Shown here: piece by piece, positions 23,166 through 27,787 of the stretch | Numbering within the stretch: the stretch's first letter is position 1 | How the letters are laid out: each line of letters opens with the position of its first letter | Assembly (NCBI GenBank): GCA_018396535.1 | Contig: JAGTQC010000003.1 | Coordinates: forward strand, 96,001-160,000 | Source: Candidatus Bathyarchaeota archaeon | GTDB taxonomy: Archaea > Thermoproteota > CALKCG01 > B24 > DRYS01 | DNA: 64,000 bases | Reading direction: 5' to 3' | Made by a program: the position numbers and the translations under genes | Notes under the pieces: generated by a model | Seen by the model: the letters and a program-made list of their open reading frames with translations, nothing else | What the model was told of the DNA's origin: nothing | Database searches by the model: none

Positions 23166-24980
23166 TTACTCCTCCTCGATAGTAGCGGCTGTATAGTAGT
23201 ATTCACCCATCTCCTTCTGTATCCTATCCAGTCTCGAACCCTCCTTATTAGCTCTAGGCCTATACGTTTGTCTATCCCTTCTAAACGTTACTCCAAGCTC
23301 CTTGAGGAACATATTCATACCACTCCTCATATCCATAGGCTGATGCCCGTAACCATCGACTCCAGGTATACCTGAGAATACCATAAGCCTATCAGCTATG
23401 AAATCTTGGACTAGTATATCATGCTCGACGACGAAGGCAACCCTACCGAGATTTTCTACGATCCTACGAACAGCTCTAGCCATAGCTAACCTCTCCTCTA
23501 CATCTAGATATGCGCTAGGCTCATCGAGTAGGTATATATCAGCATCCATGGATAAACATATAGCTATAGCTAGCTTCTGAAGCTCACCGCCGCTTAGATC
23601 TGATACCCTCCTATCTAAGATCTTATCCAATCTGAAGGGTCTATATATCTCCTCTCTGAAGAAGCTGGACTCCATCCTATCGCCTAGAGTCTTCCTCAAT
23701 AATACTTCTACAACCCCATCGTAATCCCCGGATATATACTGAGGCTTATAACTAACCTTAACTCCACCTGGTAGGGCATCCCCCTCGTCAGGCTTCTCCA
23801 ACCCGGCTAGAAGCTTAACGAACGTAGTCTTACCGATACCATTCGGTCCTAGTATACCTATAACCTCGCCTCTACGTATGAATCCAGGTTCAACTCTCAG
23901 AGTGAATCCTCCAAGCTTCTTAACCATGAAGCCCCAGCTATACTCTATATCGATAGACTCAGCTACCTGGGTAGGTGGTTTAACCTGGAATCTTATAGGT
24001 TGACTCCTAAACCTTACATTATCGCTTGGAATATATCCTTCGAGAAACATGTTTATCCCATCTCTAACAGCTCTAGGATAGGATACTATACCGTATACAC
24101 CTGGATCACCATATAGAACCGATATCATATCAGACATGTAATCCAATACTATCAGATCATGCTCAGCTACGACTACCATAACATCCTGTTTAGCTAGCCA
24201 TCTGATAACCCTAGCTACCTTAATCCTCTGACGTACATCTAGATAGCTTGAAGGCTCGTCGAATATGTATACATCAGCATCTCTACATACAACCGCTGCT
24301 ATAGCAACCCTCTGTAGCTCTCCACCGCTAAGTACATCCACCCTTCTATCGATAACTTCTCTAAGCTCTAGGATCGATACGATATAATCCATAACGCCCC
24401 GCTCATCTAGCTTAGATAGGAGTCTACTAGCTTCGCCCTTAAACACTCTAGGTATAGCATCTATATACTGAGGCTTATACGCTACTCTAAGATTACCCGA
24501 GGCGAGTTTAGCGAAGTAGTCTTTAAGAGATGTACCTCCGAAGTACTCTATTATACTATCCCAGTCTGGCGGATCACCCTCCACTACTCCTAGGTTAGGT
24601 TTAAGCTTACCTGCAAGTATACGGAGGGATGTAGATTTACCTACACCATTCTTACCTACTAGACCTAGTACGGTAGATCTAGCTGGTATAGGTAGTCTGA
24701 ATAGTTTAAACCCGTTAACACCATATCTATGGATACATTCACCTTCAAGCTCTCCTGGAAGATTAACTATCGATATAGCTTTAAACGGGCATTTATTAAC
24801 ACAGATACCGCATCCTATGCATAGCTCCTCAGATATTATAGGCTTACCCTTATCATCCACCTTGATAACTTCGATCTTATTCCTAACGAGTGGGCATAGA
24901 CGTCTGCATAGTAGTCCACAATCTTCTACACGGCAGCTATCTCTATCTATTACAGCAATCCTGTTAGTCATAGCCGACAC
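23166..24980 (-). CDS. rli: ribosome recycling ATPase ABCE1 (RLI)
   Basis: N-terminal Fe-S Cys motifs, two ABC domains (GKNGVGKS, GPNGIGKT, LSGGELQ x2), TFRRD...RPRANK..S.LD..QK..GEYYY hinge. Confidence 0.97.
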   Translation of the reverse strand: MSAMTNRIAVIDRDSCRVEDCGLLCRRLCPLVRNKIEVIKVDDKGKPIISEELCIGCGICVNKCPFKAISIVNLPGELEGECIHRYGVNGFKLFRLPIPARSTVLGLVGKNGVGKSTSLRILAGKLKPNLGVVEGDPPDWDSIIEYFGGTSLKDYFAKLASGNLRVAYKPQYIDAIPRVFKGEASRLLSKLDERGVMDYIVSILELREVIDRRVDVLSGGELQRVAIAAVVCRDADVYIFDEPSSYLDVRQRIKVARVIRWLAKQDVMVVVAEHDLIVLDYMSDMISVLYGDPGVYGIVSYPRAVRDGINMFLEGYIPSDNVRFRSQPIRFQVKPPTQVAESIDIEYSWGFMVKKLGGFTLRVEPGFIRRGEVIGILGPNGIGKTTFVKLLAGLEKPDEGDALPGGVKVSYKPQYISGDYDGVVEVLLRKTLGDRMESSFFREEIYRPFRLDKILDRRVSDLSGGELQKLAIAICLSMDADIYLLDEPSAYLDVEERLAMARAVRRIVENLGRVAFVVEHDILVQDFIADRLMVFSGIPGVDGYGHQPMDMRSGMNMFLKELGVTFRRDRQTYRPRANKEGSRLDRIQKEMGEYYYTAATIEEE

Positions 24981-25021
24981 CTAGAATGATTCCGCTATAG
25001 GTGAATGATAGTGGAAAGGGG

Positions 25022-25048
25022 AAAAAAGGTAACGGAAGGAGTGGAAGG
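25022..25048 (-). terminator. pyrimidine tract and T6 terminator after the acidic microprotein
   Basis: Minus strand CCTTCCACTCCTTCCGTTACCTTTTTT follows the stop codon. Confidence 0.55.
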
Positions 25049-25061
25049 TTGGGGGGCTAAG

Positions 25062-25169
25062 CTACCACTCCTCCTCTTCCTCTTCCTCCCACTCTTCCTC
25101 CTCCCACTCCTCTTCCTCCCATTCCTCCTCCCATTCTTCCTCCTCTTCCTCCTCTTCGAATCTGAACAT
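25062..25169 (-). CDS. 35-aa hyperacidic Glu/Trp microprotein MFRFEEEEEEEEWEEEWEEEEWEEEEWEEEEEEEW
   Basis: ATG 25169 with GGAGGTG SD 7 nt upstream, BRE-TATA at ~25220-25234, TAG at 25062-64; only GAA/GAG/TGG codons after codon 4. Confidence 0.8.
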   Translation of the reverse strand: MFRFEEEEEEEEWEEEWEEEEWEEEEWEEEEEEEW

Positions 25170-25219
25170 GATCTAACACCTCCCCCTTAGCGGGGCTAAA
25201 GAAGCATCCCCACCGCTAG

Positions 25220-25234
25220 TTTAAAAACTTTTTG
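25220..25234 (-). promoter_or_regulatory. BRE-TATA promoter of the acidic microprotein
   Basis: Minus strand CAAAAAG-TTTTTAAA, consensus-like archaeal BRE/TATA about 50 nt upstream of the ATG. Confidence 0.7.
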
Positions 25235-25264
25235 ATCATGAACGATCGCCATACATTCCCTCTC

Positions 25265-25378
25265 AATCTAAACTATACTAGTATGGGATTGGGGTGCTTA
25301 GCACACTCAAGATCCCGCTCATCAGGATCGCAAGGGCCAGAGCTGCCATCGCACCCCGAGACTAGTATATATTAGATT
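25265..25378. ncRNA. candidate structured RNA / nested inverted-repeat element
   Basis: Nested stems AATCTAA/TTAGATT, TATACTAGT/ACTAGTATA, GGGGTGC/GCACCCC, GATCC/GGATC; CTGATGA on the minus strand. Confidence 0.35.
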
Positions 25379-25386
25379 CTTCTAGA

Positions 25387-26361
25387 TTAGCGTTTCCTCG
25401 ATACATCGTTCACAGGGTATCTGGGGGGCTCTCCATGTAGAACCCTTAGTATATCCTCCACAGCTGTCAGAGCCATCCTCCTCCTACATTCTGAAGTATT
25501 GGAAGCTATATGTGGTGTAAGTATTACGTTATCGAGATCTAGTAGAGGATCATCTAGGGGTAGAGGCTCCTCCCAGAATACATCTAATCCAGCTCCAGCT
25601 ATCCACCCCTCCTTTAAAGCCTTTACTAGAGAATCGTGATCCACTATAGGTCCTCTAGCTATATTAACTAGGATAGCTGTAGGCTTCATAAGCTTAAGCT
25701 CCTCCTCCCCTATCATACCGCGTGTATACTCTGTTAACGGACATGATACTACTATGAAATCGGATTCTCTAAGTAGATCTTCTAGAGATCTATACTCTAC
25801 TCCAAACTCTGCTTCTAGCTGAGGCTTCCTAACGATATCGTAGTATAGTATCTTCATAGAGAATCCTCTAGCACGTTTAGCTATAGCCGATCCTATCCTT
25901 CCTAAGCCTATTATACCTATAACCTTACCCCATACATCCATCCCTACGAATAGGAATGGATCTCTAATCCTCCATAACCTAGATTTGACATACTGAGATG
26001 ATCTACAGATATTCCTAGCTAAGCAGAGTATGTGAGCGAAAGCCATATCCGCTACGGTTTCATGGAGGACTGGGGTTATGGTAACCCATACCCCCCTCTC
26101 GGTAGCAGCATCTACATCAACATTATCGTATCCAACCCCATGCCTAGCTATTACTCTAAGCCTAGATGCCGATTCTATAACCCTCCTACTCACTCTCTCT
26201 ACATTAAGTGTTACGAGTATAGCGTCAGCATCTCTAACCGATTCTATAAGCTCATCCTCGGTAGGAGGTTTATCGAATACATATACATCAGTATACTTCT
26301 TCAATAATTCTAAAGCCTCGCTATGTATGGGAGCTGTTATTACCACATGGTATCTACCCAT
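25387..26361 (-). CDS. gyaR: D-2-hydroxyacid dehydrogenase (glyoxylate reductase / D-glycerate dehydrogenase)
   Basis: GVGYDNVD, GLGRIG, NIARG, AGLDVFWEEP, TPHIAS. Confidence 0.85.
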   Translation of the reverse strand: MGRYHVVITAPIHSEALELLKKYTDVYVFDKPPTEDELIESVRDADAILVTLNVERVSRRVIESASRLRVIARHGVGYDNVDVDAATERGVWVTITPVLHETVADMAFAHILCLARNICRSSQYVKSRLWRIRDPFLFVGMDVWGKVIGIIGLGRIGSAIAKRARGFSMKILYYDIVRKPQLEAEFGVEYRSLEDLLRESDFIVVSCPLTEYTRGMIGEEELKLMKPTAILVNIARGPIVDHDSLVKALKEGWIAGAGLDVFWEEPLPLDDPLLDLDNVILTPHIASNTSECRRRMALTAVEDILRVLHGEPPRYPVNDVSRKR

Positions 26362-26497
26362 TCATCCATCCCCCGAATAGTATCCTACTACTTAACCCCA
26401 TCTACATCATACGGCTAGTACTAGGATAAAGGATTTAACTATAATATCACACCGTTAACTTCGATCCAGAACTAGCTAAATCTACTAATATGCATAT

Positions 26498-27787
26498 CTA
26501 TGTGTAGAGCTTCCTATCGAGTATCTTATAGACGCAGTATTCTCCACACATGGTGCATGTACCGCTCCTAGATTTCACTCTCCCATGAATCTCCGAAGCT
26601 TTCTCAGGATCCATAGATAGCTTAAACTGTGTTACCCAATCTAGACGTGCTCTAGCCTCCCCCATAGCTTTATCGATATCTAAAACCCTACCTCCAACCC
26701 TGTATAAATCTACAGCGTGAGCTGCGATCTTAGAAGCTATAACACCATGCTTTATATCTTCAGGTAGGGGTAAGCCTAGATGCTCTGATGGAGTAACTAC
26801 GCATAGGAAATCTGCACCAGCAAGCCCAGCTATAGCGCTTCCGATAGCAGCTGCTATATGATCGTATGGGGTTGCTATATCGGTAACTATAGGTCCTAGT
26901 AGATAGTATGGGGCTCCTTTACATACAGCCTTCTCTAAAGCTACGTTAGCAGCTATCTGGTGTATAGGCATGTGTCCAGGTCCCTCAACCATACACTGAA
27001 CATCCATCCCCCTACTCCTCTCTACGAGCTCCGCTACTGTTAGTAGCTCCATATTCTGAGCTATATCGTTCGCATCAGCTATACATCCAGGTCTAAGACC
27101 ATCACCTAAACTTATACATACATCATATTCTCTAGCTAACTCTAGTATGTAATCATAGTTCTCGTATAACGGATTCTCCCTACCATGATGTAGCATCCAC
27201 GATGCTATGAATGCTCCTCCACGGCTAACTATACCAGCAACCCTTCTACCCTTCTTCAAAGATTCTAGAGCTTTATAGGTTATACCACAGTGGAGTGTAA
27301 CGAAGTCTACCCCATCCTTGAAATGCCTCTCTATAGTGTTTAACACATCATCCTCGCTCATATCTATGATGGAGCCATACTTTCTAATAGATTCTATAGC
27401 AGCTTGGTATATCGGTACAGTACCTATAGGAGAGTCAAGTTCTCTAATAAGTAGTCTACGAGTATAGTCTAGATCTCCTCCAGTAGATAGATCCATAACC
27501 GTATCTGCTCCATATCTCAAACCAATCCTAGCCTTCTCGAGCTCCAGATATGGGTCGGATAGATCGACCGAAGTACCGACGTTAACGTTAACCTTCACGG
27601 TTAACCCCTCTCCTATAGCTACCGGTTTACCCAGCTTCCTATCCCTAGATGAATTACACGGTATAACAGCTACACCCCTCGCTACCATACTGGTAAGCTT
27701 TTCAGGATTAACCCCCTCTGATCTAGCTACCTCGACTACTATACCCGGTATAATACCCCTCCTAGCTTCACTCATGATAGTACCCAT
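26498..27787 (-). CDS. thiC: phosphomethylpyrimidine synthase ThiC (short archaeal type; Bza paralog not excluded)
   Basis: KVNVNVGTS, DTVMDLSTGG, IVSRGG, LGDGLRPG, EGPGH, CTMCGEYC. Confidence 0.88.
   Translation of the reverse strand: MGTIMSEARRGIIPGIVVEVARSEGVNPEKLTSMVARGVAVIPCNSSRDRKLGKPVAIGEGLTVKVNVNVGTSVDLSDPYLELEKARIGLRYGADTVMDLSTGGDLDYTRRLLIRELDSPIGTVPIYQAAIESIRKYGSIIDMSEDDVLNTIERHFKDGVDFVTLHCGITYKALESLKKGRRVAGIVSRGGAFIASWMLHHGRENPLYENYDYILELAREYDVCISLGDGLRPGCIADANDIAQNMELLTVAELVERSRGMDVQCMVEGPGHMPIHQIAANVALEKAVCKGAPYYLLGPIVTDIATPYDHIAAAIGSAIAGLAGADFLCVVTPSEHLGLPLPEDIKHGVIASKIAAHAVDLYRVGGRVLDIDKAMGEARARLDWVTQFKLSMDPEKASEIHGRVKSRSGTCTMCGEYCVYKILDRKLYT

Follow-up and report, generated by a model that had tools for sequence, protein, structure and literature searches.

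A conserved candidate gene for a hyperacidic glutamate/tryptophan microprotein, often located beside ABCE1 in Thermoproteota

ABCE1 is an essential protein of both archaea and eukaryotes, and in archaea its pathway is believed to get by with very few factors. Acidic runs close to the N-terminus of a peptide destabilise the ribosomes that translate them, an effect known as intrinsic ribosome destabilisation and exemplified by MgtL. In eIF3j, a conserved Trp in the acidic N-terminal motif mediates partner binding and is functionally essential (PMC2824034). The N-terminus of eIF3j contacts ABCE1 at the cleft between nucleotide-binding domains 1 and 2 (NBD1/NBD2) on the small subunit, and an 18-mer fragment co-crystallised with archaeal ABCE1 occupies a similar position, as far as that structure is cited there (PMC7780240). 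The targeting signal of the cytosolic iron-sulfur (Fe-S) cluster assembly (CIA) system is [LIM]-[DES]-[WF]-COO-, whose binding depends chiefly on the aromatic side chain and the carboxylate and whose pocket lies on the DUF59 protein Cia2 (PMC10245660; 10.64898/2026.04.06.716496); the upstream residues merely modulate affinity (10.64898/2026.04.06.716496). Here we describe a candidate microprotein gene directly upstream of ABCE1 in a Bathyarchaeon. It lies at 25,022 to 25,234, together with its signals, in a window of 64,000 nucleotides (nt), the whole stretch of DNA that was analysed (contig JAGTQC010000003.1, positions 96,001 to 160,000). The best explanation of the comparative sequence data, with a probability of roughly 0.6, is a trans-acting, polyanionic, Trp-studded microprotein that is coupled to ABCE1 or to translation.

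The genome under study, G000, is a Bathyarchaeia metagenome-assembled genome (MAG) of 1.41 Mb in 14 contigs, and its closest public relatives are hot-spring Bathyarchaeota bins. G001 and G002 are its two congeners, and f-numbers are family labels within the phylum. Translation of 25062-25169 on the minus strand gave MFRFEEEEEEEEWEEEWEEEEWEEEEWEEEEEEEW, that is MFRF-E8-W-E3-W-E4-W-E4-W-E7-W, with 26 Glu (9 GAA, 17 GAG) and 5 Trp in 35 amino acids (aa) and a net charge of about -26. A sequence-only reading of this DNA had proposed this open reading frame (ORF), had held that gene callers miss it and had argued for selection on the protein rather than a microsatellite, and all three proposals were borne out. 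The sole longer ORF call in the region is an antisense frame of 61 aa at 25005-25190 (plus strand). The identical 35-aa peptide is encoded in G000, G001 and G002 in the same gene arrangement. Between the three genus pairs the coding DNA differs at 16, 9 and 11 sites, all 36 of them at codon position 3, and the stop codon stands at the same place as TAG, TGA and TAA in the three genomes. Constraint on a purine tract is an unlikely cause, because it would allow A/G changes at codon positions 1 and 2, yet none are present. The upstream 70 nt, with promoter, untranslated region (UTR) and Shine-Dalgarno (SD) sequence, are about 80-85% identical within the genus, and the downstream 81 nt about 56-67%. 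Differences confined to position 3, together with a conserved promoter, are the signature of a translated gene.

The usual form in Bathyarchaeia is shorter, M-[IV]-F-EEEDEW-EEGEDEEW-EEEEW, with 22 aa. Differences among 14 orthologues of this form were distributed over the codon positions as 19/0/205. Their Trp columns are invariant, all three stop codons are used, and substitution between Glu and Asp (GAR to GAY) preserves the charge at the cost of the purine run. Frame-breaking indels were absent from 122 gene sequences, all of which had been collected by requiring an intact frame, and gene-lacking loci were not searched for broken copies. These codon patterns indicate that purifying selection is acting on the protein product of 25062-25169, and we consider it very probable that this interval is a real, conserved and unannotated microprotein gene. 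The features of the locus are as follows.

25220-25234, minus strand: promoter, with a CAAAAAG (25234-25228) resembling the transcription factor B recognition element (BRE) and abutting the TATA box TTTTTAAA (25227-25220)
25170-25200, minus strand: probable 5' UTR with the SD sequence GGAGGTG (25183-25177), 7 nt before the ATG
25062-25169, minus strand: coding sequence of the Glu/Trp microprotein, read by translation from ATG at 25169 to the stop TAG at 25064-25062
25022-25027, minus strand: T6 tract, a likely oligo-T terminator that is possibly leaky, 35 nt after the stop
24972-25021, minus strand: spacer before ABCE1, containing CTATAG (25000-24995; TATA-like) and AGGTG (24982-24978; SD-like)
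23166-24971, minus strand: ABCE1 (RLI), with two 4Fe-4S motifs and two ABC ATPase domains (Pfam ABC_tran twice, Fer4)

The BRE-TATA, GGAGGTG and T6 elements named in the sequence-only reading could all be read in the sequence. The TATA box lies about 54 nt upstream of the microprotein ATG, and the usual spacing of about 25 nt from TATA box to transcription start probably places the start site of the microgene. Within the three genomes of the genus, AAAAGTTTTTAAA is invariant and the DNA farther upstream has diverged. The 5' UTR sequence TTAGCCCCG(C/T)TAAGG(G/A)GG is likewise kept, and a small stem, CUUUAGC/GCUAAGG, stands immediately 5' of the SD sequence. A run of T5-6 occupies the same position in both congeners as the T6 of G000. 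ABCE1 starts with the ATG at 24971, so that the microprotein ORF is 90 nt upstream on the same strand, in agreement with the claim of direct adjacency. The CTATAG of the spacer lies about 26 nt before this ATG; in all three genus genomes ABCE1 is preceded by a TATA-like element (-26 to -30) and by AGGTG (-7 to -11). The ABCE1 protein is 87% identical to those of the congeners over the first 190 aa and is present in 40 of 40 relatives.

Two structural claims about the ends of the gene had to be given up. Folding of the 3' trailer back on the last codons, as had been proposed, has no stability beyond that of dinucleotide shuffles (z: G000, -0.4 and -0.9; congeners, -0.9 and +1.5; another family, -0.8 to +0.6), and no structure is conserved across families. 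The sequence TTAGCCCC had been said to flank both ends of the gene; its second copy, after the stop, is not kept in the congeners, which have CTAACTCCC and CTAAGTCTCCC. An Rfam scan over 24000-26500 returned only sub-threshold miRNA-like hairpins, with 17-33 bits against gathering scores of 60-100. Farther upstream, between the gene for a 2-hydroxyacid dehydrogenase and the microgene promoter, the window carries a 68-nt imperfect hairpin, GGGGTGCGATGGCAGC...GTGCTAAGCACCCC, at 25291-25358 on the minus strand, with a consensus fold of -33.6 kcal/mol. Its stems are invariant in the three genus genomes and variation is confined to the apical loop; it is present in one copy in G000, has no Rfam match and has an ATATA-like box 5-8 nt upstream. 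Possible identities are a small structured RNA and a 3'-end element.

Similar peptides are widespread in the phylum. A search of 400 sampled Thermoproteota genomes for EEEEW followed by a stop codon found matches in 153, usually once per genome, compared with 12 for a reversed control pattern. G000 itself has a single real copy, to which a looser EEEW-stop pattern adds only a chance frame of four codons. The gene is near-universal in some families (23/23 genomes of f14, 21/25 of f15, 13/16 of f7 and 21/32 of f12), and the strict pattern had no matches in f5 (0/57), f10, f13, f16, f18, f25 and f29. This pattern undercounts the family. With a looser search, members turned up that end in EEEEEEEF (one f13 genome) and in FWEEEEEE (one f16 genome), and the f5 and f18 genomes tried yielded nothing. 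Families scored as negative by the EEEEW pattern may thus carry divergent forms. The f13 member (L220, genome G024) is MFGEKILWAEEEEEFEEEWEEEDFEEEEWEEEEEEEF, Phe-terminated and unlinked from ABCE1. The f16 member (L229, genome G028) is an acidic Phe/Trp peptide within an open frame of 87 codons, whose start was not set, and it is also unlinked from ABCE1.

Family statistics were taken from 122 distinct gene sequences, which encode 101 distinct peptides. The peptides are 18-90 aa long (median 27) and consist of 62% Glu, 13% Trp and 5% Asp. Each begins with a short segment of hydrophobic or basic character; Glu runs broken by Trp come next, most commonly with a Trp-Trp spacing of 5, and the peptide ends in E4-7-W with a free carboxylate. 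Lys or Arg occurs beyond residue 12 in only 2 of the 101 peptides. The statistics of the terminal residues are partly circular, since many loci were retrieved by the EEEEW pattern; loci that were found through ABCE1, and not chosen by this pattern, have the same peptide ending. An SD-like 5-mer stands 4-17 nt before the start in 111 of the 122 genes, and a run of at least five T follows within 80 nt of the stop in 96 of them (median offset 24 nt), compared with 15 of 122 in an upstream 70-nt control. These frequencies make the "complete transcription unit" that had been described for the G000 gene a property of the family.

Scans of seven family members against Pfam and NCBIfam gave no match at E<=10. 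A homology search with a 59-aa member returned 535 word-sharing candidates, none with E<=0.01, probably as a result of composition correction, and an exact look-up of nine members in a collection of 15 billion proteins found none of them. The exact 35-aa sequence of G000 is present in the ESM Atlas, where its feature neighbours (<=0.80) are uninformative. Our literature searches found no description of a Glu/Trp microprotein family. In S. acidocaldarius, ABCE1 is saci_0672 (PMC6335949) and saci_0671 is "FBP" (PMC4569737); saci_0673 was mentioned in no paper that our searches found. By these comparisons the microgene belongs to an undescribed, Thermoproteota-wide family of hyperacidic microproteins. 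An AlphaFold2 model of the lone peptide is a single helix with pLDDT 94, which we regard as the typical behaviour of poly-Glu in such predictions and do not take as evidence of structure. One f14 genome, G051, has three paralogues of about 105 aa with a 70-residue domain of unknown kind (L205:1213-1530:+; L207:1050-1355:-). In the two that were read, this domain is fused to a Glu/Trp tail that is almost the same as the microprotein of that genome (EELWEEFEEEWE...EEEEEW). Neither Pfam nor NCBIfam has a match to the domain, which occurs in 1 of 29 f14 genomes; it may be mobile-element cargo that captured a Glu/Trp tail.

The gene neighbourhood was compared in two sets of loci, 80 Bathyarchaeia loci anchored on ABCE1 and 68 loci anchored on the EEEEW-stop pattern. 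The microgene is upstream of ABCE1 on the same strand in 52 of the 80, and the ABCE1-anchored search also found a Glu/Trp ORF upstream in other families of the order and in several of the phylum. Among the 68, ABCE1 lies downstream on the same strand at a distance of 54-1368 nt in 34, the two genes are divergent neighbours in 6 (f7, f39), and ABCE1 is not found within 1.4-2 kb in 28. The ABCE1 linkage noted in the sequence-only reading thus recurs across many families, and it is not universal. Because it is frequent and not universal, the idea of a dedicated ABCE1 modulator stays at the level of a suggestion. The other roles put forward in that reading, as a mimic of the stalk tail or as a chaperone for histone, Alba or ribosomal proteins, are likewise conjectural. 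The microgene is unlinked from ABCE1 in f14, f19, f24, f26, f27, f32, f45 and f47. None of 10 f14 loci has ABCE1 nearby, yet the gene is kept in all 23 genomes of that family, and in complete f14 genomes it is hundreds of kilobases away from ABCE1. Across loci, the distance from the microgene stop to ABCE1 varies from 31 to more than 1000 nt. One Bathyarchaeon (G041) has an additional microgene copy that is unlinked from ABCE1.

Whole genes are found between the microgene and ABCE1 in several lineages. In f12, f37 and f61 this is a gene for an RPB9-type Zn-ribbon protein of about 92-100 aa, which has a Zn ribbon of RPB9/TFS type at the N-terminus (PF02150) and an acidic tail at the C-terminus. 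Microgene, Zn-ribbon gene and ABCE1 form a recurrent three-gene cluster (L021:1171-1473:+; L183:1656-1931:-; L174; L179). A VapB-like and PIN/VapC-like pair, called by reading the sequences, stands in this position in one Bathyarchaeia MAG (L069:676-1438), and a gene for an 85-aa membrane protein in individual Bathyarchaeia. Further neighbours of the microgene encode a YGR210-like Obg GTPase and Sua5. In 8 of 10 f14 loci the microgene is followed by a gene of the AdoMet_dc family (PF02675) and this by a conserved ORF of 202-205 aa, so that a polyamine-pathway gene stands beside the gene of a polyanionic peptide. The ABCE1 gene has a peculiarity of its own in one f18 genome (G031:C2:72661-74175). 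There the N-terminal match is split (query 3-59 and 56-188) by an open frame of about 950 nt within an ORF of 925 aa, an apparent insertion of intein type that would be located at the second of the Fe-S motifs.

Unlinked and divergent loci, inserted genes and the non-significant hairpin make an obligate leader or attenuator unlikely and trans action most probable, and we consider it likely from these comparisons that the product acts in trans and not as a cis-acting leader of ABCE1. Across deep families the microgene accompanies ABCE1 in tandem, in tandem with a gene in between, or divergently; the persistence of this neighbourhood through three arrangements points to a functional tie to ABCE1 or to translation, and the balance of the gene-order comparison leans slightly towards such a tie. 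Trp positions and the terminal E-E-W-COOH are strictly conserved, which speaks for specific docking rather than bulk charge. A trans-acting microprotein tied to translation might work as follows. A disordered or helix-prone polyanion would be drawn by its charge towards a basic surface on ABCE1, on the small subunit or on a partner factor, and would be anchored there through the Trp side chains and the carboxylate of the terminal Trp. The bound peptide could then tune the hand-over from recycling to initiation. Such a model would parallel the action of the acidic, Trp-bearing N-terminal motif of eIF3j/Hcr1 and of the acidic stalk tail. That the partner is ABCE1 itself, bound directly, is a doubtful proposition. 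A predicted complex of ABCE1 and the peptide had a score of 0.00, below the mark and run without controls, and speaks neither for nor against binding.

Several observations weigh against this preferred reading. The 28 of 68 pattern-anchored loci mentioned above, about 40%, do not adjoin ABCE1, and in f14 the gene of the AdoMet_dc family lies 116-246 nt downstream of the microgene in 8 of 10 loci (L144-L153). The unlinked loci and this AdoMet-decarboxylase-like neighbour imply that the link to ABCE1 may be indirect. The terminal Trp is replaced by Phe in one f13 genome and extended by E6 in one f16 genome. When ABCE1 from lineages with the microprotein (35) was compared with ABCE1 from lineages without it (10), no distinguishing basic or aromatic surface patch was found; five columns, mostly conservative, were mildly associated, and the charge of the Fe-S domain showed no difference. 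Finally, the composition of the peptide is so simple that a generic polyanion role is conceivable.

Such a generic role would make the peptide an acidic chaperone or buffer for basic ligands, for example proteins of the ribosome or of chromatin, polyamines, or cations such as Mg2+; its place beside ABCE1 would be no more than inherited gene order. The charge of about -26 over 35 residues and the near absence of Lys and Arg after residue 12 are in line with this, the length and the number of repeats vary freely as expected for bulk charge, the polyamine-pathway gene is a neighbour in f14, and many families have the gene unlinked from ABCE1. Inertia of gene order, however, explains poorly why tandem, interrupted and divergent arrangements with ABCE1 recur in many deep families, and bulk charge does not call for strict Trp positions and a terminal E-E-W-COOH, although the terminal statistics are partly circular; we hold a role unrelated to ABCE1 to be unlikely. 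A different view of the arrangement in G000 is that the ORF is a leader peptide or upstream ORF that acts in cis, senses the capacity for recycling and adjusts ABCE1 expression to it by feedback. Ribosome destabilisation by poly-Glu, or slow termination and recycling at the Trp-stop, would control read-through of the T6 or re-initiation. The ORF does share its strand with ABCE1 and ends 90 nt before it, the T6 lies between the two and an SD-like AGGTG precedes ABCE1, same-strand upstream is the commonest arrangement, and N-proximal acidic runs are known ribosome destabilisers, as mentioned above for MgtL. A leader would nevertheless have to stay in front of its target, whereas all 10 f14 loci and seven further families (f19, f24, f26, f27, f32, f45, f47) have the gene unlinked, f7 and f39 have it divergent, the VapBC pair, the RPB9-like Zn-ribbon gene and the 85-aa membrane protein gene have been inserted before ABCE1, and the stop-to-ABCE1 distance ranges from 31 to more than 1000 nt. 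Moreover, the trailer hairpin is neither better than shuffles nor conserved, the amino-acid conservation, N-terminus included, far exceeds what an upstream ORF needs, and a TATA-like element stands 26-30 nt before the ABCE1 ATG. A cis-acting leader is on these grounds distinctly improbable. A lineage-specific cis effect could coexist with the trans role, and in G000, where the T6 may be leaky and ABCE1 has AGGTG and a TATA-like box, a local effect could occur.

The aromatic terminus allows a further explanation, that the peptide is an adaptor for Fe-S maturation whose terminal aromatic carboxylate recruits a cluster-delivery protein to the Fe-S domain of ABCE1, in the manner of CIA and Lto1. 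In eukaryotes Rli1/ABCE1 requires Yae1-Lto1, with an essential C-terminal Trp (PMC4523923), the peptides of the family terminate in E-W-COOH (E-F-COOH in one f13 genome), and a single stand-alone DUF59 (Cia2-like) protein is encoded in G000. The third residue from the end, however, is Glu and not Leu, Ile or Met; the peptide is almost free of Gly, with no deca-GX3 motif and no Pfam match; and the microgene is unlinked from ABCE1 in many lineages. With the G000 DUF59 protein as single query, orthologues (E<=1e-8) were found in 0 of 8 f3 and 0 of 3 f14 genomes (microprotein present) and in 3 of 3 f5 genomes (microprotein lacking). Archaeal homologues of CIA clients have also been reported to be without a targeting signal (PMC10245660). 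We give this adaptor little credence. The tract might, at the extreme, not be a gene at all but a purine-rich GAR microsatellite or a structural tract of DNA or RNA that is open in one frame by chance. Tandem Repeats Finder reports imperfect periods of 9, 12, 15 and 24 over 25065-25157, the GAR/TGG tract is stop-free in all three frames, and HMMER-based searches are unable to score it. A purine tract would accept A/G changes anywhere, yet all 36 genus differences are at codon position 3, and Asp codons (GAY) substitute for Glu codons in relatives. In addition, an SD sequence and start codon, with a stop right after the last Trp, are found in more than 100 distinct genes, all three stop codons are used, and the gene occurs as one copy per genome, against 12 of 400 for the control. 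A non-coding origin has next to no probability in our estimate.

Within the preferred reading of a trans-acting microprotein tied to translation, a more specific version is conceivable, in which the peptide is a dedicated ABCE1 cofactor and does, as a protein of its own, what the acidic Trp motif does within eIF3j, or what the adaptor Lto1 does. Docking through the Trp side chains and the carboxylate at its end, it would control ATPase cycling, 30S release or Fe-S loading. We offer this version tentatively, by analogy with the described factors. If true, it would add a previously unseen component to archaeal ribosome recycling and initiation. The overlooked microgene could be a missing accessory factor of one of these processes, a possibility supported by its frequent adjacency to ABCE1. 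Gene callers and hidden Markov model searches with low-complexity filters skip it, given its tiny size and extreme composition, and trypsin-based proteomics probably misses the peptide because it has almost no Lys or Arg.

By sequence, the microprotein belongs to none of the systems that offer the nearest analogies (eIF3j, the stalk tail and Lto1/CIA), and it shares some traits with each. It resembles Lto1 and the CIA clients in a terminal aromatic residue with a free carboxylate after an acidic residue, in a system tied to ABCE1 as an Fe-S protein (PMC4523923, PMC10245660). Measured against the CIA tripeptide, position -1 (W, or F in one f13 genome) and position -2 (E) fit, and position -3 is E instead of L, I or M. 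The microprotein differs from Lto1 in having no deca-GX3 domain, and the distribution of DUF59 orthologues does not follow its own; the idea of a DUF59/Cia2-type receptor is weakened by this phyletic mismatch. We know of no CIA targeting complex in these archaea. MgtL-type leaders are likewise short ORFs with an N-proximal acidic run, and the G000 gene shares with them the place directly upstream of another gene. Unlike such a leader, the microprotein family persists where it is unlinked or divergent from ABCE1, its peptide is conserved across families, and no alternative RNA structures were detected at the microgene. DSS1/Sem1 is similar in being very small, acidic, Trp-containing and probably disordered, and the microprotein would, like it, dock onto larger partners; its composition is far simpler, its context is another one, and there is no match to Pfam DSS1_SEM1 at E<=10.

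The stalk tail and eIF3j offer likenesses of another kind. The tails of the stalk proteins aP1/P1/P2 combine a poly-Glu run with a hydrophobic or aromatic terminus and serve as flexible docking peptides. In our reading, the 18-mer that was co-crystallised with ABCE1 is the tail of aP1. The Leu/Phe-rich terminus (GLxxLF-type) of the stalk tail is missing from the microprotein with its EEEEW ending. The tail is also part of a ribosomal protein and has no periodic Trp, whereas the microprotein is free and has no match to Pfam Ribosomal_60s. With eIF3j/Hcr1 there is no homology, as seven members gave no match at E<=10 to Pfam, eIF3_subunit included. eIF3j is about 250 aa long, with a dimeric core of helices and a C-terminal tail that reaches into the mRNA channel, whereas the microprotein would be the motif alone, terminated by Trp. 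To our knowledge the partner of the N-terminal acidic motif of eIF3j, the eIF3b RRM, is absent from archaea. The likeness to eIF3j/Hcr1 lies in an acidic stretch with conserved Trp (62% Glu and 13% Trp in the microprotein family, with Trp invariant in 14 orthologues), and in the association of both with ABCE1, which for eIF3j extends to the passage from recycling to initiation and for the microprotein is suggested by gene order.

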